DNA of 64,000 bases from a phage. The position numbers were made by a program, and so were the translations under genes. How positions within the stretch are numbered: position 1 is the first letter of the stretch; every line of letters begins with the position of its first letter. Below the pieces are notes generated by a model that saw nothing but the letters and a program-made list of their open reading frames with translations, did not search any database and was not told where the DNA came from. Below are positions 45,401-53,400 of the stretch, piece by piece. Where the stretch lies: sequence record PZ179883.1; one strand, given 5' to 3'.

Positions 45401-47218
45401 CTACTGGCTCATCCATTCTTTACGAAGGTCAGCATTATCTCCCATGAGCATTTCAAAAAGCTCTTTCCAGTTCTCAGGAAGTTTAACAACATCATATACT
45501 GGATTTTGAATCATCTCACGATATTCAGATTTTTCCAAAGAGCCAAGTCCTTTAATATAACGGATGCTATGTTTAGGTAGAGCATCTTTAGCACTCTCAT
45601 ATTCAGCGACTGTATAAAACCATTCTTGTTTTTTACCAATCTGTGCGATGATTACAGGAGTTTTGACAAAGCGAATTCGTCCTTGCTCAAACAGTTCTGG
45701 CCAATTACTAAAAAATCCAAGCAGAGAAGGATAAATGCTTCCTAGACCATCATGGTCAGCATCAGTCATAATAGCAATATTATGATAATTCAAGTTTTCA
45801 GCTTTTTCACCGAGAACTAATCCAGTGATTGCGCAAATATCAAACAGTTCTTTGTTTTTAAGCATGTCAGCATATGACATACCCCAACTGTTGAGAACTT
45901 TACCACGTAATGGATAACCACCATGAAGTTCTTTATCACGAACATCAATAAGATATCCGATAGCAGAATCACCCTCAGTCAAGAAAAGAGTAGTGTCAGC
46001 ATCTTTACCGCAAAGATTCGCTTTAATATGTTTATGAACCTTAGCTTTAGAAGCCTTTTTAGCTGCTTTAGTTTCTGCTGCTTTTTCTGCCGCTAATTTA
46101 CGAGCCAAAGCAGCTTCAATAATTGGCATTAAAATTGCTTCATTATTTAGAATAGCACGTGAAATCTTTTTAGCATCAAGTTGAATATGACTACGGATTT
46201 CACCAAATGGAGAAGTCAAACGCTCTTTAGTTTGAGAATCAAATCGCATGTTTTTCATATCACGGACAAACATAACGATAGTCAAACATTCTTTAACGCG
46301 TGCTTTAGTCACATCAATTTTGAACTTACGTTTGATTTGTGGAATAAGGTCTTCACAAATATCATCCATAACACAGTCAATGTGATGGCCACCATTCTTA
46401 GTGTGAATGTTATTCACATAAGTTAATTGACGAAAACCATCCGGTGAACGACCAACCGCAATAGAGCAATTTTCTTGTTCTTGAACGATAGCATGCTCAT
46501 CATATTGGCGTGCATATTTCTTAAAATTGCCCTGAACCTTTTTACCATTAAAGGTAAATTGAATATCAGGATAAACTACTGCAAGTGTCTGGAGACGATC
46601 TAGTGTAATGTCAAGATAAACTTGGGACAGCTCATTAGTTTCAAATGACATAAAATCAGGAATGAAAGTAACACGAGTTCCTTTCCATTTTCCTGGAATA
46701 GTTTCCCATGATTTATTTTCCATGCCATTTGAACAACGAACTACAATATTATTTTGACCATCACCAGTTTCACCGACAAACATCACAGAAAAAATGTTTG
46801 TCAAACTAGAACCAACACCATTCATACCGCCAGTGACGCGTTCTTTATCATCACCAAAGTTACCGCCTGCTTTTGGAATAGTCCAGGCAGCAACAGGACC
46901 AGGAATTTCTTCACCAGTAGGTGTTTTAACCATCGCCTGTGGAATACCGCGACCGTTATCTTCAACTGTTACTTGATTGTTTTTAATAGTAACATTAATT
47001 TTATTTGCGAATTTAAACTTAGTACGAATACCTTCATCTACTGAGTTATCGATAATTTCATCAATAAGCTTAACAAGACCAGGTACATACTGAACACTTT
47101 CCCATTTACCAAACAGAAAGCGCTCATGCATTTCATTAGCGGAAGAGCCAATGTACATGCCGCTACGCTTTTTGATATGTTCAATATCGCTCAGAATTTT
47201 AATTTCATTCTTAATCAT
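45401..47218 (-). CDS. 39: DNA topoisomerase II large subunit gp39, uninterrupted (covers T4 genes 39 plus 60)
   Basis: Single 605-606 codon ORF with GHKL ATPase N-terminus and TOPRIM C-terminus; no stop, gap or bypass element. Confidence 0.9.
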   Translation of the reverse strand: MIKNEIKILSDIEHIKKRSGMYIGSSANEMHERFLFGKWESVQYVPGLVKLIDEIIDNSVDEGIRTKFKFANKINVTIKNNQVTVEDNGRGIPQAMVKTPTGEEIPGPVAAWTIPKAGGNFGDDKERVTGGMNGVGSSLTNIFSVMFVGETGDGQNNIVVRCSNGMENKSWETIPGKWKGTRVTFIPDFMSFETNELSQVYLDITLDRLQTLAVVYPDIQFTFNGKKVQGNFKKYARQYDEHAIVQEQENCSIAVGRSPDGFRQLTYVNNIHTKNGGHHIDCVMDDICEDLIPQIKRKFKIDVTKARVKECLTIVMFVRDMKNMRFDSQTKERLTSPFGEIRSHIQLDAKKISRAILNNEAILMPIIEAALARKLAAEKAAETKAAKKASKAKVHKHIKANLCGKDADTTLFLTEGDSAIGYLIDVRDKELHGGYPLRGKVLNSWGMSYADMLKNKELFDICAITGLVLGEKAENLNYHNIAIMTDADHDGLGSIYPSLLGFFSNWPELFEQGRIRFVKTPVIIAQIGKKQEWFYTVAEYESAKDALPKHSIRYIKGLGSLEKSEYREMIQNPVYDVVKLPENWKELFEMLMGDNADLRKEWMSQ

Positions 47219-47274
47219 CACTTATCCTCGTTTGGTTTCGGGAATATTATACTCCGGTAATCATAAAGCTAAAG

Positions 47275-47286
47275 GCCCGAAGGCCT
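47275..47286 (-). other. intercistronic UUCG-tetraloop hairpin
   Basis: Minus strand GGCC-UUCG-GGCC between the lipoprotein ORF and gene 39. Confidence 0.45.
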
Positions 47287-47287
47287 T

Positions 47288-47557
47288 TTATTTAAAACGA
47301 ATAGTTGAATCCTTAAAGAACAGCCCAGAACATACTGTTCCTTCTACTTTCTGCCCAGTAGGTCCAATAGCACGAAATCCAGTATGTTGGAAATCATTTT
47401 CAGAACAACCGAACCAGTTATATCCAGTGATTTCAATATTAGTAAAACCGCTTGAAGACAAAACTTTGGTTGCATTATCAGCATCAGTACATCCTACTAA
47501 AGACACTGCTAATACTAATGCCGCGATAGAACGATTAATATATTTCATAATTTTCAC
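47288..47557 (-). CDS. putative lipoprotein
   Basis: Signal peptide plus lipobox LVGC (MKIMKYINRSIAALVLAVSLVGCTD). Confidence 0.5.
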   Translation of the reverse strand: MKIMKYINRSIAALVLAVSLVGCTDADNATKVLSSSGFTNIEITGYNWFGCSENDFQHTGFRAIGPTGQKVEGTVCSGLFFKDSTIRFK

Positions 47558-47925
47558 TTAAATTTAATGGCTTGAAGAAGACTAATAATTCTCAAGCGAC
47601 TTCCTTCATCTTTAACTGTAAAAGAAAGAGGGTCACCAGATTTCATAGTGATAGTGCATTCAAAAGCAAAACCTTCGGGAACTTCTTCGAAGAAGTCAAA
47701 TTCTTCATCATAAATTAGAACATTACTCTGAAAACTGTGAAGAATTTTTCCGTCATTTCCAGATGCTGTACTAATCATTGTAACATTATTACCTTTCATA
47801 TCTTCAACGATAAATTCGCTTGTAGATATTACAGCATTAATAGAACCATTCCTATAAATAGCAGAAAATAGATATTTCTTTTCTTCACCTTCGCGAATGC
47901 GATATTTCTTACCGATTTTAAACAT
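47554..47925 (-). CDS. hypothetical protein
   Basis: 123-aa ORF. Confidence 0.5.
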   Translation of the reverse strand: MFKIGKKYRIREGEEKKYLFSAIYRNGSINAVISTSEFIVEDMKGNNVTMISTASGNDGKILHSFQSNVLIYDEEFDFFEEVPEGFAFECTITMKSGDPLSFTVKDEGSRLRIISLLQAIKFK

Positions 47926-47927
47926 AA

Positions 47928-48104
47928 TTACCCTTTAAGTAAGTCGTAAAATCCGCCATTCACATGCTTAGGGGCAGAGACTAACCGAATAGCAATCCGA
48001 TGACAATCAGGACATACATCAGTATCTCTTTCAGAAATTTTCTTGATTTTTTCGTATTCTTTTGCGCAGTCTTTTGATTGACATTTATAATCATAAAGCG
48101 GCAT
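47928..48104 (-). CDS. small zinc-ribbon-like protein
   Basis: 58-aa ORF with two CxxC pairs (CQSKDC ... CPDC), not in the supplied track. Confidence 0.4.
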   Translation of the reverse strand: MPLYDYKCQSKDCAKEYEKIKKISERDTDVCPDCHRIAIRLVSAPKHVNGGFYDLLKG

Positions 48105-48106
48105 AA

Positions 48107-48520
48107 TTATTCCTTAAAGTGAGCTTTCAACATCTGATACAAGGACCATGCCTGTTCATCATTTTCAATAGTAACTTTCATTACAGGGAATTTAGATTGA
48201 TCAGTTATCGGTGCAGATTCTTCCTGCTCTTCAGCTGCCTGGTATGGATTTTCAACTTCATTAAAGAATTCAGCTTCATTCGATGAAAGCCAAATAAAAT
48301 CTTCATCCAAAATATCTTTACCAGAAGATAGTACTAAATTTCCAGCAAATGACATAATTTTAATAGGACGCCCAAGAGCATCCACATCTAAAATTTTAAA
48401 AGGATGCATACCTAAACGGCGTGCATAGATTCCGTTATCAGTATGGTCTTTAATAAAATTTTCTTGAGCTTGTTTATTTTTAAATTGATACCATTTATTA
48501 ACTTCAAATTTAATAGCCAT
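48107..48520 (-). CDS. hypothetical protein (goF position)
   Basis: 137-aa ORF; identity to T4 GoF not verified. Confidence 0.45.
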
Positions 48521-48735
48521 TAATAAATTTCCTTCCAGTAAGTTGTACCATCTTCAGTGATTTCACGAAATACACCGTAAATTGGTTGTTTATCCCCAAC
48601 CTTTTCATACACATAAACCGAAGTCAAGTGAGTAAACTTAGCAGTGTGTTCCTTTTGAACTACTACCAAATCTGGATCGAATAACACATCTTCAAATTCG
48701 TCATTAGTGCAGTTCTGAACAATTTTACGTTTCAT
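48520..48735 (-). CDS. hypothetical protein, possibly Cef
   Basis: 71-aa ORF of T4 Cef length at the expected position; sequence identity not verified. Confidence 0.4.
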
Positions 48736-48907
48736 TACAATTTCCTCGTTAATTGAACATTGGAGCGATGCGTTTCAGAAGAGTAGCAGCACCTTTGGCA
48801 AATTTTCCATTTTATTCTCCAAATTATTTTCTATATCAGTAGTTGATATTGATATAGTACCATAATCAACTACTGATGTATATAGTTTTATGAAAAAATT
48901 TTAAACT

Positions 48908-49399
48908 TTATGCATAGCGAGCTTTGCTGTAGTGTTTAATCCAACTTTCAGGAATGACTTTGTATGTTCCTAAAAATACCGCGTTGTATAACTTAACGCC
49001 ATCTTCTACCCATTGATCAGTAATGTATGCACACATAGCGCGAGTACGCCGAGGAAGTGGTTGTCCACCTTCGATAAATTCAAACTCATAAGGAGCAATG
49101 AACTTGATAGCTCGACCGAGTTTCCACTTAAAGTCTACACCTACATGCGAAGTATCAATCGTTTCAATTCCTTTAGCGGGAACAGCTTTCAAAAACGCAG
49201 ATTCAAGAAATTTCGCGCGAACATAACCAAACTGAGGTTTAGACTTTCCATCTTTAGGAATGATACGCACTTTTACTTCAGAATCTTCATCTTTAACGCC
49301 GTGTTTAAGCTGAATGCTTACAATTTCGACCAATTTTCCTGCTGCTTTAGAACGGGATTTATCAGATACACGAGCAATTTCACCAATATTAATAATCAT
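48908..49399 (-). CDS. hypothetical protein, possibly MotB
   Basis: 163-aa basic ORF at the T4 motB position; shares a C-terminal TDQWVEDGV motif with the next ORF. Confidence 0.45.
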   Translation of the reverse strand: MIINIGEIARVSDKSRSKAAGKLVEIVSIQLKHGVKDEDSEVKVRIIPKDGKSKPQFGYVRAKFLESAFLKAVPAKGIETIDTSHVGVDFKWKLGRAIKFIAPYEFEFIEGGQPLPRRTRAMCAYITDQWVEDGVKLYNAVFLGTYKVIPESWIKHYSKARYA

Positions 49400-49475
49400 A
49401 GTTATCTCTCACTTGTTAAAAAGATTTTATACTCCACAGGACCATTATACTCTGGTCCCAAGAGTTTGTAAACTA

Positions 49476-50021
49476 TTAATTCAAAATAGCTACCACCGCA
49501 CTACGAGGTACTACACTAAAATCTCCTGCATGGACAACGTTCAGAAGCTCAACACCATCTTCAATCCACTGGTCTGTTACCCAACCACAGATAGGATTAT
49601 CAAAAGGACGACGGATAGACACAGCAGCACACAACAGGTCTGTAGGGTCTTGTTCTTCAACTTCTTGGAACAGGATGAACTCATCTTCATAAACCAGGTT
49701 TTTCTTTATTTTGTTATTATCTAACCGGCGACCGTGGATGACGTAAGATTTGTCAAACCACTCACTTTTGGCAAATTCTTCAACAATAAATTCGCCTTCG
49801 CCAAAAACATCAGTCAGAGTTTTATGACCAGAAATCAAGGCATTAGTTTTAATTTTAGGTTCAACCAGTTTGTAGGTTTTGCCGATTTCAATAGCGGTAG
49901 TCATAGTAGGTTCCTTAATTTCCAGTGGTTTAACAGGGCATACATAAGTGCTTACAACATCAAAATCAATCAGTTTAGCTACCGGATTTGGTGTGTATTC
50001 AGGATTATAATTAAATTTCAT
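49476..50021 (-). CDS. hypothetical protein, paralog of the preceding ORF
   Basis: 181-aa ORF; C-terminal ...CGWVTDQWIEDGVELLNVV similar to ...CAYITDQWVEDGVKLYNAV of 48908..49399. Confidence 0.45.
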   Translation of the reverse strand: MKFNYNPEYTPNPVAKLIDFDVVSTYVCPVKPLEIKEPTMTTAIEIGKTYKLVEPKIKTNALISGHKTLTDVFGEGEFIVEEFAKSEWFDKSYVIHGRRLDNNKIKKNLVYEDEFILFQEVEEQDPTDLLCAAVSIRRPFDNPICGWVTDQWIEDGVELLNVVHAGDFSVVPRSAVVAILN

Positions 50022-50023
50022 AA

Positions 50024-50524
50024 TTATCTCATTTCAATAAAATCTACGAGTTCAGCATGGGATTTACGGAACATTACTTGGTGCCCGCCAATGATAACTT
50101 CATCTTCAGGAACTTCGTATACAGCGAGATAAAATCCTTTAGAAGATAATTCTTCCCGCTCTTCTCGTGTGAACCATCTCATCATATCATATTCACTAGC
50201 GAAAGCAAAATGATAAAGAGCTATAAACCATCCTGGAATATGATATTCTACTCCAACATAATCTTTCTTGAACTTAGTATTAATTACTATATTAGCGTTT
50301 TTAACTAATAGTTTATCTTCGTGTGGTAAAGGAATTCTTTTATTATTATCGCTATGATGCATAAAATTAGGTCTGTCATAACCTACGTGTAATAACCACT
50401 CTTCGCTCCATGAATCTATTATACTCCTGTACGGCGTTATTTGAACACAAAGATTTCGACGTATTGTTATAGCATCTTCATAATTAAGAATACTAAAAGA
50501 TGATTCAACACGATAAATTTTCAT
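50024..50524 (-). CDS. hypothetical protein
   Basis: Start at MKIYRVESS with GAGGA RBS; the longer track ORF would begin upstream of the promoter motif. Confidence 0.45.
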   Translation of the reverse strand: MKIYRVESSFSILNYEDAITIRRNLCVQITPYRSIIDSWSEEWLLHVGYDRPNFMHHSDNNKRIPLPHEDKLLVKNANIVINTKFKKDYVGVEYHIPGWFIALYHFAFASEYDMMRWFTREEREELSSKGFYLAVYEVPEDEVIIGGHQVMFRKSHAELVDFIEMR

Positions 50525-50551
50525 TTTATTATCCTCAGTAGCTATGGTGTT

Positions 50552-50580
50552 ATAATACCACAACTAACCGAGGAAGTAAA
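50552..50580 (-). promoter_or_regulatory. early promoter (T4-type sigma-70)
   Basis: Minus strand: GTTTACT, 17 nt, TGGTATTAT; downstream of dexA. Confidence 0.5.
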
Positions 50581-50587
50581 CAACTTT

Positions 50588-51271
50588 TTATCGTTTTGTT
50601 GGAAGAGATAGAGGATCGCACTCTTCTTCTGACGGAGCATCTTCAAGACCCATAGCATATCGCAAAGCATACTTCATCATCAGGATGTCTTTCGCACAGT
50701 CATGAATAGAATCATGCGCAACGAATCCATCTAAAGTTCCTTTTGGAAGAGGACACGTGGTCATATCACGAACAAGCAGAAGTGCTTCAATTCTGGTACG
50801 AATATCACGCTGATTCCAGAATTTACATGGTTCTAACTTAAATGTGTCAAGTTCATTCTCAGAAACACCATTAAGACGTTGAATATCACGAATGAGATCG
50901 ACTAAAATTGGAAAATCAAACGACATTCCACGGCACCAGCCTTGAGATTTCCAAGGATCGATATTATGTGCATTGATGTAATCATTAAATTTCGCAATAC
51001 CGTCGATAGTGCTTACATCTTCATCGGACGGTGCAATATTTTTTCGAGCTTCAGGAGACTGATTTTTCCACCATTCGATAGTGCTTTTAGTAAAAAGACG
51101 ATGTCCTTTTTGGCTTTTTAAATCAAATTTGATTTTAATGCCGCGTGAAACTAATTCATCAAATGTTTCAACTACTTCTGGGTTAGGGTCAAAAGCAATT
51201 ACAGCTAAATCAATAACAGCTGCTTTTTCACCACTTCCCATTGTTTCAAAATCTATAATAAAATCAAACAT
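50588..51271 (-). CDS. dexA: exonuclease A (DEDD 3'-5' exonuclease)
   Basis: 227-aa ORF MFDFIIDFETMGSG... with DEDDh-like motifs; matches T4 DexA. Confidence 0.85.
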   Translation of the reverse strand: MFDFIIDFETMGSGEKAAVIDLAVIAFDPNPEVVETFDELVSRGIKIKFDLKSQKGHRLFTKSTIEWWKNQSPEARKNIAPSDEDVSTIDGIAKFNDYINAHNIDPWKSQGWCRGMSFDFPILVDLIRDIQRLNGVSENELDTFKLEPCKFWNQRDIRTRIEALLLVRDMTTCPLPKGTLDGFVAHDSIHDCAKDILMMKYALRYAMGLEDAPSEEECDPLSLPTKR

Positions 51272-51513
51272 TAAATTTTCCTTGCTAAATCGCGAATTTG
51301 ACCTACAGTATAATCTTGAATATAAACTTTATTAATAGGTTCATCAATAAATTTTGCCATAGATTCAATATCTTTTTGTATTTCTTCAAGACTGTATACT
51401 ATCTTTAAAGCTTTTTCGCGAATAGTAATATTTTCAGGACCCTGATTTTCTTCAATGACAGTTTTAACATTTGTCATAAGAGATTTAAACTGGTACCAAC
51501 TCAATTCAATCAT
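51271..51513 (-). CDS. hypothetical protein
   Basis: 80-aa ORF; similar architecture to the next ORF. Confidence 0.45.
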   Translation of the reverse strand: MIELSWYQFKSLMTNVKTVIEENQGPENITIREKALKIVYSLEEIQKDIESMAKFIDEPINKVYIQDYTVGQIRDLARKI

Positions 51514-51766
51514 TAATAATCGCCTTATAAAGATAGCTAATTTCGCCTAAAATATAATCATTGATTGTAACAGTTTTCACTTCACCACAAAAGAATTCTA
51601 ACGCAATTAAATCTCGTTCAATTTCTTCTAATTGAAGCCTCAACTTACTAGATTCTATTTTTACAGTTTCACGATTTTTGCTATAAGCAATTTCATAAAT
51701 TTCGCTTACTTTATCTTGAAGAAGATAAAACTGATCTTTAGTTATTTCCACGAATAGCTTCCTCAA
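51506..51766 (-). CDS. hypothetical protein
   Basis: 86-aa ORF; likely tandem paralog of 51271..51513. Confidence 0.45.
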   Translation of the reverse strand: MRKLFVEITKDQFYLLQDKVSEIYEIAYSKNRETVKIESSKLRLQLEEIERDLIALEFFCGEVKTVTINDYILGEISYLYKAIIND

Positions 51767-51772
51767 ATTTAA

Positions 51773-53092
51773 TCATACATAAAACACATCATAACGACCA
51801 CGGGTAACACCAACATAAAGAAGTTGTTGAGCCAATTCAGCATCTGCATAATGAATACAAGGCGTATAAATGAAAGCACGGTCTACAGACATACCTTGAG
51901 CTTTATGGAATGTTGATGCAGGAAGTGCTTTCACTTTACTAAACTGTGATTTAGCATCCCAAAAATCACTCCATGGAGCTTTTCCGCCTTTGTTCCAATT
52001 TTTATAAGTTTCTGCCGTTTTACCTAAAAATAGGTTAAACTTATATAACTCTTCATCAGATGAAATTATTTTAATCTTTTCACGATAATATTCATCATCG
52101 CCGTAAGTTTCTACTGTTAAATCCCAATGACGAATTAGATATTCTCCAGGAACGCCACGAGCTTTAACAAATGTTGATGTATACTCTGCTTCTATAATAC
52201 GAACTAATTGTCCGTTATTAAAAATAATTTCTGACACAGGCTTTCCATCAATTTTATATGTTTTAATTAATGGTTCCTGCATTACAATAATTTCACCGAC
52301 AATAAAATCTTTATCAGTTTCAAAAATCTTTTTACGAATAATGCTATTTAACTTATCAACAGATTTATTCGTAAATGCCATTACACGATTTTCAAACAAA
52401 TCATCTAGTGATTTGACGATTGAAAAATAATTTACCATAAAATCGCGTAAAGCGGTATCACCAGTAAATCCACGTACTCCATGCCCGTCAACAATTTTAT
52501 CATAAATCCACTTACCGTTGCGAACATCAGTAGCTACATCAATAATAGGAGCATTACTGCGTTTAACTTCAGTGAGTTCACACTGATAAAAATCTTTGTG
52601 CGTAAAGAATGGACTGATATAAGCAGTGTTTTCTCCTGGGTCAACAGGTCTAATTTGCTTATTATCGCCTATTCCAATTATAGTACACCACGGCGGGATA
52701 GTTGAAAGCAGAATTTTAAATAGCTTTCTATCGTACATTGACACTTCGTCGCAGATTAATACTCTACATTTGGCTAAATCCGGTACTTCTTTTTGTTCAA
52801 AAAGAACGTTTTCTTCGTATGTTACTGGGTTAATTTTGAGAATACTGTGAATAGTACTCGCTTCTTTCCCTGATAGTTTTGAAAGAATCTTTTTAGCTGC
52901 GTGTGTAGGAGCTGCTAAAATAATTCCAGTTTCGCCTGTAGATATTAAAGCTTCAATGATGAACTTAGTAAGAGTAGTCTTACCAGTACCAGCAGGTCCA
53001 TTAATAGTTACATGATGTTTCTTTTCTTTGATAGCCCTCATAACAATGTTAAAGGCATTTTTCTGGCCTTCGGTCAAATCATCAAATGTCAT
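51773..53092 (-). CDS. dda: Dda DNA helicase (SF1B)
   Basis: 439-aa ORF with Walker A GPAGTGKT and SF1 motifs; matches T4 Dda. Confidence 0.92.
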   Translation of the reverse strand: MTFDDLTEGQKNAFNIVMRAIKEKKHHVTINGPAGTGKTTLTKFIIEALISTGETGIILAAPTHAAKKILSKLSGKEASTIHSILKINPVTYEENVLFEQKEVPDLAKCRVLICDEVSMYDRKLFKILLSTIPPWCTIIGIGDNKQIRPVDPGENTAYISPFFTHKDFYQCELTEVKRSNAPIIDVATDVRNGKWIYDKIVDGHGVRGFTGDTALRDFMVNYFSIVKSLDDLFENRVMAFTNKSVDKLNSIIRKKIFETDKDFIVGEIIVMQEPLIKTYKIDGKPVSEIIFNNGQLVRIIEAEYTSTFVKARGVPGEYLIRHWDLTVETYGDDEYYREKIKIISSDEELYKFNLFLGKTAETYKNWNKGGKAPWSDFWDAKSQFSKVKALPASTFHKAQGMSVDRAFIYTPCIHYADAELAQQLLYVGVTRGRYDVFYV

Positions 53093-53400
53093 CGTAAATT
53101 CCCTGCAATTGGTATACTAACAATACGCCCAGTATCTAAAATTCGCCGATATAATCTTTGTGTGTCTACATCAGGCTTAACATGTTTAACTTCTATTTTA
53201 TTAAACCAAAACTTGCGTGGAGTCTCAACTAATCTCGGAATTCCCATACCTAAAGCTAGTTGATACTGCTCTTTAAGAGTTGTAAATACTTTATCAGCAA
53301 TCTCCCTTTCAAAAAATACAGCAGGGCGATGTTCATCAAGAGGAACAGGCACCGCAAATCCATCTTTATCTCTATACACTATCGCATATACATAAAACAT
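53089..53400 (-). CDS. hypothetical protein
   Basis: 103-aa ORF coupled to dda. Confidence 0.45.
   Translation of the reverse strand: MFYVYAIVYRDKDGFAVPVPLDEHRPAVFFEREIADKVFTTLKEQYQLALGMGIPRLVETPRKFWFNKIEVKHVKPDVDTQRLYRRILDTGRIVSIPIAGNLR

Follow-up and report, generated by a model that had tools for sequence, protein, structure and literature searches.

Paralog pairs motB/motB.1 and dexA.1/dexA.2 in the genome of a T4-like phage

Genes of the 39-to-dda block

The DNA analysed here, a stretch of 64,000 nucleotides from sequence record PZ179883.1 (hereafter the window), is part of a Tequatrovirus (T4-like phage) genome, with 99.3% nucleotide identity to phage ECO07P4, and the window genes match T4 gene by gene. 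Four open reading frames (ORFs) were identified as the T4-type genes motB, motB.1, dexA.1 and dexA.2, and they very probably represent two known paralog pairs, motB/motB.1 and dexA.1/dexA.2, within the dispensable 39-to-dda block of Tequatrovirus. The genes and features of this locus are as follows:

47554..47925, minus strand: GoF-like ORF, 123 aa, absent from T4; LSm-like family (hhalign, HMM)
48908..49399, minus strand: motB, 163 aa; full-length PF17613, PHROG 1671, position as T4 motB
48944..49042, minus strand: shared C-terminal block of MotB, residues 120-152, CAYITDQWVEDGVKLYNAVFLGTYKVIPES (BLASTP alignment; family-invariant columns)
49444..49472, minus strand: predicted early-type promoter (GTTTACA, 17 nt, TATAAT; consensus match only)
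49476..50021, minus strand: motB.1, window-type, 181 aa; PHROG 2333 (E=2e-89), PF17613
49500..49598, minus strand: shared C-terminal block of MotB.1, residues 142-174, CGWVTDQWIEDGVELLNVVHAGDFSVVPRS (BLASTP and family alignment)
49653..49892, minus strand: putative LSm/SH3-like beta-barrel of MotB.1, residues 44-123 (BLASTP, shuffles, hhalign, HMM, PHROG 622)
51271..51513, minus strand: dexA.1, 80 aa, pI 5.1; PHROG 1700; relatives carry PF26837
51506..51751, minus strand: dexA.2, 81 aa, pI 4.6; GTG start; PHROG 1700

All four ORFs of the original prediction are present on the minus strand at the coordinates it gave, except for the start of the fourth. This ORF, listed as 51506..51766, exists, but position 51766 is a mechanical TTG within the Shine-Dalgarno region; the true start is the GTG at 51751, with the Shine-Dalgarno sequence GAGGA at 51760-51764, 8 nt upstream, as in T4 dexA.2 (81 aa). 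Likewise, both pairs had been placed between 39 and dexA, while the second pair actually sits between dexA and dda. The public names of several of these genes mislead: "exonuclease" or "dextranase" is the annotation given to dexA.1 and dexA.2, and motB.1 is listed as a "transcriptional regulator". Since both pairs are already on record in the literature and in Pfam, neither is a new observation, and the finding is correct but ordinary, i.e., it re-discovers two relationships between paralogs that were already documented in a phage group among the most thoroughly studied.

Similarity within the two pairs

The motifs from which the pairs were first recognised are exact: MotB carries CAYITDQWVEDGVKLYNAVF and MotB.1 CGWVTDQWIEDGVELLNVVH, while LEEIQKDIE...IQDYTVGQI of DexA.1 corresponds to LEEIERDLI...INDYILGEI of DexA.2. 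Pairwise alignment, proposed earlier as a check, gave significant similarity for both. By BLASTP, 16 of 33 residues are identical between MotB and MotB.1 (E=5e-11), confined to residues 120-152 and 142-174, respectively, and DexA.1 and DexA.2 share 23 of 80 residues over their full length (E=2e-7). When Smith-Waterman scores were compared with 2000 shuffles per pair, none of the shuffles reached the observed score for MotB/MotB.1 (z=15.8) or DexA.1/DexA.2 (z=9.5), and control pairs from the same region gave z<2.5. It could be argued that the common motifs are chance or composition matches among unrelated small AT-rich phage ORFs, as the first alignment is short (33 aa) and the second pair just 29% identical. 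However, besides the shuffles and regional controls, each pair is united by independent profile libraries (PF17613, PF26837, PHROGs 1671/2333 and 1700), and the single-copy relative P0185 (identity 46% with DexA.1, 34% with DexA.2) bridges DexA.1 and DexA.2 as an intermediate. The chance reading, refuted by BLASTP, the Pfam/PHROG profiles and the shuffles, retains practically no probability, and both within-pair similarities are genuine and well above chance. When all 1181 stop-to-stop segments of the window were scanned with HMMs, each family was represented by its two known copies and no extra ones. In addition, an NCBIfam scan matched nothing meaningful, and PDB sequence searches with MotB, MotB.1 and the DexA profile gave nothing below E=0.08.

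Domain composition of MotB and MotB.1

According to published work, MotB binds DNA in a non-specific manner and modifies complexes of H-NS with DNA (PMC6070864, PMC7827196); it reshapes H-NS/StpA-DNA complexes and raises burst size (PMC7827196, PMC6070864), and its association with H-NS was observed only with DNA present (PMC6070864). The window MotB matches Pfam PF17613 over positions 1-162 with 327.3 bits (gathering cut-off 25 bits), is basic in both halves (pI 9.6) and has a dN/dS of 0.19-0.28. It thus has the features of the MotB functional class, namely basic charge and a MotB-type N-terminal domain (full-length PF17613), with DNA binding itself taken from PMC6070864. Compared with T4 MotB, it occupies the same genomic position and differs chiefly at residues 100-118. 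The promoter predicted upstream of motB agrees with the T4 early-type consensus at 11 of 12 positions, was the top site of the scan and lies within the 76-nt spacer. Published HHpred analysis described the N-terminus of MotB as KOW-like and its C-terminal domain as an OB-fold (PMC7827196); the KOW assignment rests on that analysis, as our Pfam scan gave no KOW match in MotB at E<=1.

PF17613 also matches MotB.1 above the gathering cut-off, with 34.6 bits over residues 140-176, corresponding to profile positions 117-153 only. A family alignment of 35 sequences, in which MotB-family members were drawn from phage records (a word-index search with a two-sequence C-terminal profile gave just 8 fragments), showed C-x3-TDQW-x-EDGV-x-L-x-N-x-V-x2-G to be invariant. 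From these comparisons, MotB and MotB.1 appear to have in common a C-terminal module of ~55-60 aa, carried on unrelated N-terminal domains. A common C-terminal domain was described, and a duplication proposed, by Patterson-West et al. 2021 (PMC7827196). The window proteins carry the C-terminal motif in its published form. Unlike MotB, MotB.1 is acidic (pI 4.8; C-terminal module pI 4.2), and it differs from the MotB functional class in both its charge and its unrelated N-terminus. Despite the domain it shares with MotB, MotB.1 should therefore not be treated as its equivalent. No phenotype is seen in the laboratory when motB.1 is deleted.

The similarity of the C-terminal blocks could alternatively stem from recent gene conversion or recombination between neighbours rather than from selection on an old duplicate. 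The region is indeed recombinogenic: deletions have fused the beginning of motB.2 with the end of motB.1, which in Salmonella phage F13076 leaves an ORF of 30 aa and in phage BYEP01 the 43-aa P0193. However, the 33-codon block has only 56% nucleotide identity between motB and motB.1, with the same codon at 9 of the 16 identical residues and different codons at the other 7, and the two paralog types can already be told apart in Dhakavirus, Gaprivervirus and Mosigvirus. Recent gene conversion is therefore very improbable and was rejected on codon usage. Instead, the low nucleotide identity and the few shared codons argue for an old duplication; the module is under purifying selection and conserved at the protein level.

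While the C-terminal modules align readily, homology between the N-terminal parts of MotB and MotB.1 was not detectable (Smith-Waterman z=0.3; hhalign probability 0.2%). The putative barrel of MotB.1 resembles the neighbouring ORF 47554-47925 instead, both by BLASTP (E=8e-4; shuffle z=6.8) and by hhalign against the family of that ORF (E=3.8e-6 over 73 columns), with reciprocal HMM matches. MotB.1 residues 44-125 match PHROG 622, the GoF family (E=3e-4), and in hhalign comparisons GoF itself is matched by ORF 47554-47925 with E=5.6e-4 over 83 columns and weakly by the MotB.1 domain (E=0.037). In published work, the LSm-like N-terminal domain of MotB.1 is described (PMC12152347), and GoF, together with MotB.1 and Frd.2, forms a Tevenvirinae LSm-like fold family with an N-terminal five-stranded bent beta-sheet (Kim et al. 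2025). Judging from the sequence comparisons, the N-terminal barrel of MotB.1 is most closely related to ORF 47554-47925, which T4 lacks, and MotB.1 is a chimera of this barrel with a C-terminal module akin to that of MotB.

The original prediction of local duplication and divergence consequently suits motB/motB.1 only in part, as the C-terminal module alone is paralogous. It might be supposed that motB and motB.1 arose by whole-gene duplication and are homologous throughout, their N-terminal halves, both SH3-like barrels, having diverged beyond recognition. Consistent with this, both N-termini have been assigned to small SH3-like barrels (KOW for MotB by published HHpred, LSm-like for MotB.1), a similar I-x-I-G pattern starts both proteins, and the alignment reaches slightly upstream of the block (YEFEFIE versus YEDEFILFQEVE), where E112, E114 and E120 are nearly invariant. 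Yet, in addition to the z of 0.3 for the N-terminal parts alone, the MotB KOW domain gave hhalign probabilities <=1.2% against every LSm-like set, while the MotB.1 barrel is far closer to ORF 47554-47925. Moreover, in a Klebsiella phage protein the N-terminus is of the MotB type but the C-terminus of the MotB.1 type, an additional N-terminal domain is present in 248-aa forms, and the N-terminal domains differ between T4-type and window-type MotB.1. Whole-gene duplication is thus an unlikely explanation, though less so than gene conversion, and a homology of the MotB N-terminus to LSm-like barrels was rejected as undetectable by pairwise Smith-Waterman and hhalign. With homology limited to the C-terminal module, motB/motB.1 departs from tandem gene duplication. 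Because only this module is paralogous and the MotB.1 barrel is related to ORF 47554-47925, domain shuffling or partial duplication describes the pair better, a reading already given by Patterson-West et al. 2021 (PMC7827196).

AlphaFold2 was used to predict the structure of MotB.1, and the model, of low confidence (mean pLDDT 60.9; C-terminal module 59-71), consists of a disordered segment (residues 1-43), an LSm/SH3-like barrel (44-123) and the MotB-type C-terminal module (124-181). The modelled barrel has strands at 49-52, 77-85, 92-99, 104-111 and 118-121 and a helix at 60-73, while the modelled strands of the C-terminal module lie at 133-136, 144-154, 157-164, 167-172 and 176-178. The shared module may tentatively be regarded as a five-stranded small beta-barrel, given the low model confidence and low Foldseek TM-scores (0.26-0.41), and MotB.1 would therefore look like two tandem SH3-like barrels. 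In contrast to the published OB-fold call for T4 MotB (PMC7827196), this low-confidence model suggests a small SH3/Tudor-like barrel. The best Foldseek matches of the MotB.1 model in the PDB were tandem Tudor, Agenet and Spt5-KOW proteins (E ~1e-3 to 5e-2), and Hfq was not among the top matches. Tandem SH3-like barrel proteins (53BP1 tandem Tudor, Agenet pairs, Spt5 KOW repeats) likewise have two small beta-barrels in series; however, compared with the low-confidence model, identity is 10-14%, TM 0.26-0.41 and rmsd ~13 Å. The likeness thus appears to be one of architecture alone, with no evidence of homology or common function.

The C-terminal barrel may be a structural or interaction core common to MotB and MotB.1, and the exchange of N-terminal domains together with the reversed net charge (pI 9.6 versus 4.8) would provide different partners. 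Because of this swap and charge reversal, it is improbable that MotB.1 also binds DNA non-specifically, and it may more likely bind protein or RNA.

The window MotB.1, with 181 aa, differs from T4 MotB.1 in its N-terminal region, and it is probably of the 2021 paper's "Category 4" type. Separately, the motB.1 gene of the T4 reference (119 aa) has an extra G, while in three further T4 records the gene encodes 143 aa, and the reference gene appears to be truncated by this single extra base within the family-defining motif. This truncation bears on the reading of published work on the "13.8 kDa MotB.1", as experiments with the 119-aa T4 MotB.1 may have studied a protein without most of the conserved C-terminal module.

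The dexA.1/dexA.2 family

For dexA.1 and dexA.2, the proposed local duplication and divergence held up, as the genes are adjacent on the same strand with an 8-nt overlap and end-to-end homology, and single-copy relatives occur in sister lineages. The last 8 nt of dexA.2, ATGATTGA (51506-51513), overlap the start of dexA.1. The pair is thus very probably the product of a tandem duplication of an entire gene, one that encodes a 9.5-kDa acidic protein of the PF26837 family. Copy number in related phages, another check named earlier, was two in Tequatrovirus, one in Dhakavirus and Gaprivervirus (intermediate-looking) and none in Mosigvirus, and the duplication looks Tequatrovirus-specific. A search of 1.84 billion proteins for this family gave just 9 cluster representatives. 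The dN/dS values are 0.06-0.27 for dexA.1 and 0.07-0.17 for dexA.2.

Compared with T4 DexA.1 and DexA.2 (UniProt Y00G/Y00H), the genes and their overlap are the same and nothing material differs, with five non-synonymous differences in DexA.1 and three in DexA.2. As previously reported, co-transcription links dexA.2 and dexA.1 to dda.1 and dda (bioRxiv 10.1101/2024.04.04.588121), and DexA.2 protein has been detected in T4-infected cells and is reported to be conjugated by Cap2 of CBASS (PMC10097602). PF26837 (Phage_T4_Y00H_G) is precomputed on all DexA.1 relatives, and it is also recorded on both the 81-aa and the 80-aa gene of one related contig and on a DexA.2 representative (P0194). Our Pfam scan gave no match for the window DexA.1 or DexA.2, the copy scanned perhaps being without PF26837, and their membership is shown via relatives that are ~90-95% identical. 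Both proteins match PHROG 1700 (DexA.1 E=1.4e-42, DexA.2 E=1.8e-48), each mapping to one half of the 160-column profile. This may be explained by a fused 159-aa entry from phage ime09, in which dexA.1 and dexA.2 are joined into one ORF through a 1-nt deletion; the fusion may itself be a sequencing error.

The AlphaFold2 model of DexA.1 (pLDDT 94.3) predicts a beta-alpha-alpha-beta-alpha fold, and the BFVD model of DexA.2 superposes on it with a TM of 0.86 and an rmsd of 1.6 Å, i.e., the same fold. Foldseek found no match for the DexA.1 model in the PDB (best E=1.0). With a confident model and no PDB analogue, DexA.1 is a reasonable small target for studies of structure and function. DexA.1 and DexA.2 may be translationally coupled and made in similar amounts, and they could act as small protein-binding modulators. 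The gene overlap and the single fused ORF of ime09 suggest that they possibly form a heterodimer.

A third ORF of 86 aa lies between dexA.2 and dda in 309 Tequatrovirus-type records, while the window and T4 lack it. The case for a putative kinship of this ORF and a Klebsiella 73-aa ORF to DexA.1/DexA.2 consists of BFVD fold matches and synteny, as the DexA.1/DexA.2 profile gave hhalign E ~0.5 against the two ORFs and, with hmmsearch filters off, 5.3 bits and 1.9 bits. In Aeromonas phage Aeh1, synteny is different and dda is not beside dexA; the position of its BFVD matches is therefore unplaced. As a tentative and rather doubtful extension, DexA.1 and DexA.2 might be the part recognisable by sequence of a wider family of beta-alpha-alpha-beta-alpha proteins (73-90 aa) without a solved-structure analogue, occupying the dda-dexA slot in many Straboviridae in 0-3 copies. 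The 86-aa third ORF would belong to this family, as would the "MLRINEY..." proteins of Klebsiella and Enterobacter phages, and its members could modulate a host or phage protein as hetero-oligomers.

Gene map and significance of the two paralog pairs

The window is a segment of a Tequatrovirus (T4-like) genome; over bases 47200-53100 its identity to Escherichia phage ECO07P4 is 99.3%, and at least 80% of that stretch is covered by each of 486 phage records. All genes of the region are carried on the minus strand and were mapped by comparison with the annotated genomes of phages ESCO58 and T4.

Genes of the region in window coordinates
45401-47221, minus strand, 39
47288-47557, minus strand, 39.1
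47554-47925, minus strand, 123-aa ORF without a counterpart in T4
47928-48104, minus strand, 39.2
48107-48520, minus strand, goF
48520-48735, minus strand, cef
48908-49399, minus strand, motB
49476-50021, minus strand, motB.1
50024-50524, minus strand, motB.2
50588-51271, minus strand, dexA
51271-51513, minus strand, dexA.1
51506-51751, minus strand, dexA.2
51773-53092, minus strand, dda

Based on this map, the four ORFs that the original prediction regarded as two tandem paralog pairs are motB and motB.1, and dexA.1 and dexA.2. Their coordinates were correct apart from the start of dexA.2, placed at 51766; the TTG found there lies within the region of the dexA.2 Shine-Dalgarno sequence GAGGA (51760-51764), and the true start is a GTG at 51751, the same as in T4. 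The second pair was also misplaced in the 39-dexA region, as it sits between dexA and dda. Both motifs on which the pairs were proposed, the C-terminal TDQW-EDGV block and the LEEI-containing pattern, are present exactly as spelled. Pairwise alignments were significant for both pairs: motB/motB.1 share 16/33 identities (BLASTP E=5e-11; Smith-Waterman z=15.8), while dexA.1/dexA.2 share 23/80 identities from end to end (E=2e-7; z=9.5), and none of the 2000 shuffles used to test each Smith-Waterman score equalled the observed score. Control pairs drawn from the same region gave z<2.5. The dN/dS ratios of the four genes against other Tequatroviruses were 0.06-0.28, and thus all four are coding and under purifying selection. 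Both paralog relationships were already known.

Two further features were observed in the region. As judged from its translation, the N-terminus of gp39.1 (MKIMKYINRSIAALVLAVSLVGC) resembles the signal peptide of a lipoprotein, including a lipobox (LVGC). The mechanical ORF of motB.2 (50024-50563) begins with a TTG at 50563, giving 179 aa, while the T4 and ESCO58 annotations use an ATG at window 50524, for a protein of 166 aa. Just ahead of it, at 50580-50552, is a promoter-like site, TTTACT-17-TATTAT, preceded by a TG.

The C-terminal module of MotB and MotB.1

The BLASTP similarity is confined to residues 120-152 of MotB and 142-174 of MotB.1. Pfam PF17613 (motB) covers the full length of MotB (327 bits) and residues 140-176 of MotB.1 (34.6 bits, above the cut-off of 25 bits), and PHROGs 1671 and 2333 cross-match the two proteins likewise. 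The relationship of these C-termini has been published, with 102 homologs grouped by N-terminal type into four categories (Patterson-West et al. 2021, PMC7827196). Using tblastn, the module was found at 1631 places in 781 phage records, typically twice per genome (range one to three). The nucleotide identity of the block is 56%, with different codons at 7 of the 16 identical residues; the conservation is ancient and concerns the protein sequence.

For the window MotB.1, AlphaFold2 gave a model with a mean pLDDT of 60.9; the first barrel scores about 73-77 and the C-terminal module, in which five strands are predicted, 59-71. Its best Foldseek matches in the PDB were tandem Tudor, Agenet and Spt5-KOW proteins (E about 1e-3 to 5e-2, low TM-scores). 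Tentatively, MotB.1 may therefore consist of two consecutive SH3-like barrels, the second in place of an OB-fold, which at such confidence is no more than a lead. This low-confidence model differs from the published assignment of the MotB C-terminal domain, for which HHpred indicated an OB-fold.

The two proteins also differ in charge, as MotB has a pI of 9.6 (module 9.3), whereas that of MotB.1 is 4.8 (module 4.2). Because of this opposite charge, MotB.1 is unlikely to share the published non-specific DNA binding of MotB, which also changes H-NS footprints and improves burst size; deletion of motB.1 has been reported to give no laboratory phenotype. The shared C-terminal barrel would form a common structural or interaction core, and the exchange of N-terminal domains, together with the difference in net charge, would direct MotB and MotB.1 to different partners. 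A strong early-type promoter match (TTTACA-17-TATAAT, 49472-49444) in the spacer after motB.1 is a candidate for serving motB.

In the T4 reference genome (AF158101.6, the sequence of NC_000866.4; positions 3792-4151 of L002, our T4 record), motB.1 is annotated as 119 aa ending in TDQWIGRWR, while the next frame runs on through EDGVELLNVVHAGEYSVVPRSAVVAILN to a stop. This truncation is due to a single extra G (ATTGGAAG vs ATTGAAG elsewhere) inside the TDQWI|EDGV codons. The T4 records OZ209057, MT984581 and KJ477684 are without it and encode a 143-aa MotB.1 with a complete module. Ten more T4, T4T, RB55 and RB59 records gave a 520-nt match to the 521-nt reference segment; the identity is 99.6% for T4T and 99.8% for the other nine, consistent with their having that one difference. 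MotB.1 has been described as a 13.8-kDa protein (Kim et al. 2025, PMC12152347), the size of 119 aa, and such work may thus deal with a truncated form without most of the conserved module.

Probable domain shuffling at motB and motB.1

No similarity was found between the N-terminal parts of MotB and MotB.1 (z=0.3 in Smith-Waterman shuffles), and the MotB N-terminal set gave an hhalign probability of at most 1.2% against every LSm-like set; at the level of sequence, homology is limited to a domain. The MotB.1 barrel (residues 44-123) instead resembles the 123-aa ORF at 47554-47925 (BLASTP E=8e-4; shuffle z=6.8; hhalign E=3.8e-6 over 73 columns; reciprocal HMM matches), which in turn matches GoF (hhalign E=5.6e-4). 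Since its barrel resembles this GoF-like ORF, the window-type MotB.1 (181 aa) is, as judged from these comparisons, a mosaic of a GoF-family barrel and a MotB-type C-terminal module. The N-terminal domain of MotB.1 has been described as an LSm-like barrel, kin to GoF and Frd.2 (Kim et al. 2025, PMC12152347). Local duplication and divergence, proposed for both pairs, is thus the right account of dexA.1/dexA.2 but covers motB/motB.1 only in part, a pair explained by domain shuffling rather than by duplication of a whole gene.

Other arrangements are also seen. T4-type and window-type MotB.1 differ in their N-terminal regions, and some MotB-family forms of 248 aa have an additional N-terminal domain. 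The sole MotB-family gene of Klebsiella phage CP-p-KP-21072 (4231-4674 of its record, L006) joins a MotB-type N-terminus to a MotB.1-type module (DPTDLL...GWVTDQWVEDGVELLNVVH) in an acidic protein (pI 4.9), possibly an ancestral-like arrangement or a further product of shuffling.

The 123-aa ORF itself looks like a GoF-like paralog within the LSm family, and of all proteins compared it is the one most closely related to the MotB.1 barrel. It has the shared N-terminal F-x-h-G-K-x-Y and EF-x-FFEEV patterns, and its C-terminal RL..I..L..IKFK tail resembles that of GoF. In Salmonella phage F13076 (30 aa; L007 4486-4578) and phage BYEP01 (43 aa; P0193), a tiny ORF runs from the opening residues of MotB.2 (MKIYRVE) into the end of the MotB.1 C-terminal module (LLNVVHAGDFSVVPRSAVVAILN). 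Deletions seem to have produced these ORFs, which resemble the 29-aa "Category 3" peptide of RB69 (Patterson-West et al. 2021, PMC7827196).

Family, distribution and expression of DexA.1 and DexA.2

PF26837, named for the UniProt entries of T4 DexA.1 and DexA.2, is a precomputed match of DexA.1 relatives, and 81-aa and 80-aa genes of a related contig both carry it (Phage_T4_Y00H_G); PHROG 1700 likewise includes both proteins. By sequence the family is very narrow: among 1.84 billion cluster representatives searched with a profile, only 9 were matched. The AlphaFold2 model of DexA.1 is confident (pLDDT 94.3, pTM 0.82) and has a beta-alpha-alpha-beta-alpha topology, for which no significant PDB match was found (best E=1.0). 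In BFVD, it matched DexA.2 (TM 0.86, rmsd 1.6 Å), as well as small uncharacterised proteins of Cronus, CC31, CF1 and fHe-Yen9-01 and an 86-aa protein of Sf25 (TM 0.80-0.87, E 3e-3 to 5e-2).

By tblastn, DexA.1 was found in 531 records (480 at ≥80% identity, 51 below 60%) and DexA.2 in 499 (497 at ≥80%). The dexA-dda interval holds one copy in Dhakavirus IME08 and in Gaprivervirus VR7, and none was found there in Mosigvirus. The single-copy protein P0185 shares 46% identity with DexA.1 and 34% with DexA.2, has a DexA.2-like N-terminus and is intermediate between them; the duplication looks Tequatrovirus-specific. In 309 Tequatrovirus-type records, a third ORF of 86 aa lies between dexA.2 and dda (ESCO58, L001 5039-5299), which is missing from the window, where its slot corresponds to 51752-51772, and from T4. 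The Sf25 protein (TM 0.81) may be this ORF. Because sequence profiles detected neither the third ORF nor the proteins of this interval in Klebsiella and Kanagawavirus phages, only fold and synteny suggest a wider DexA.1-fold family. In phage ime09 (L010 1448-1927), the loss of one base close to the end of dexA.2 gives a 159-aa DexA.2-DexA.1 fusion ORF, which may be natural or a sequencing error and may account for the 160-column profile of PHROG 1700.

dexA.2 and dexA.1 overlap by 8 nt (ATGATTGA), making translational coupling plausible. Co-transcription has been published for dda.1, dda, dexA.2 and dexA.1 (bioRxiv 10.1101/2024.04.04.588121). DexA.2 is found in infected cells, and its Lys5 is a residue to which cGAS is conjugated there by CBASS Cap2 (PMC10097602). 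DexA.1 and DexA.2 would be produced in similar amounts and could be small protein-binding modulators, possibly acting together. In public records, both genes are widely labelled "exonuclease" or "dextranase" (RefSeq); the present analysis found no support for either activity, and the labels seem to derive from the name of the neighbouring gene dexA.
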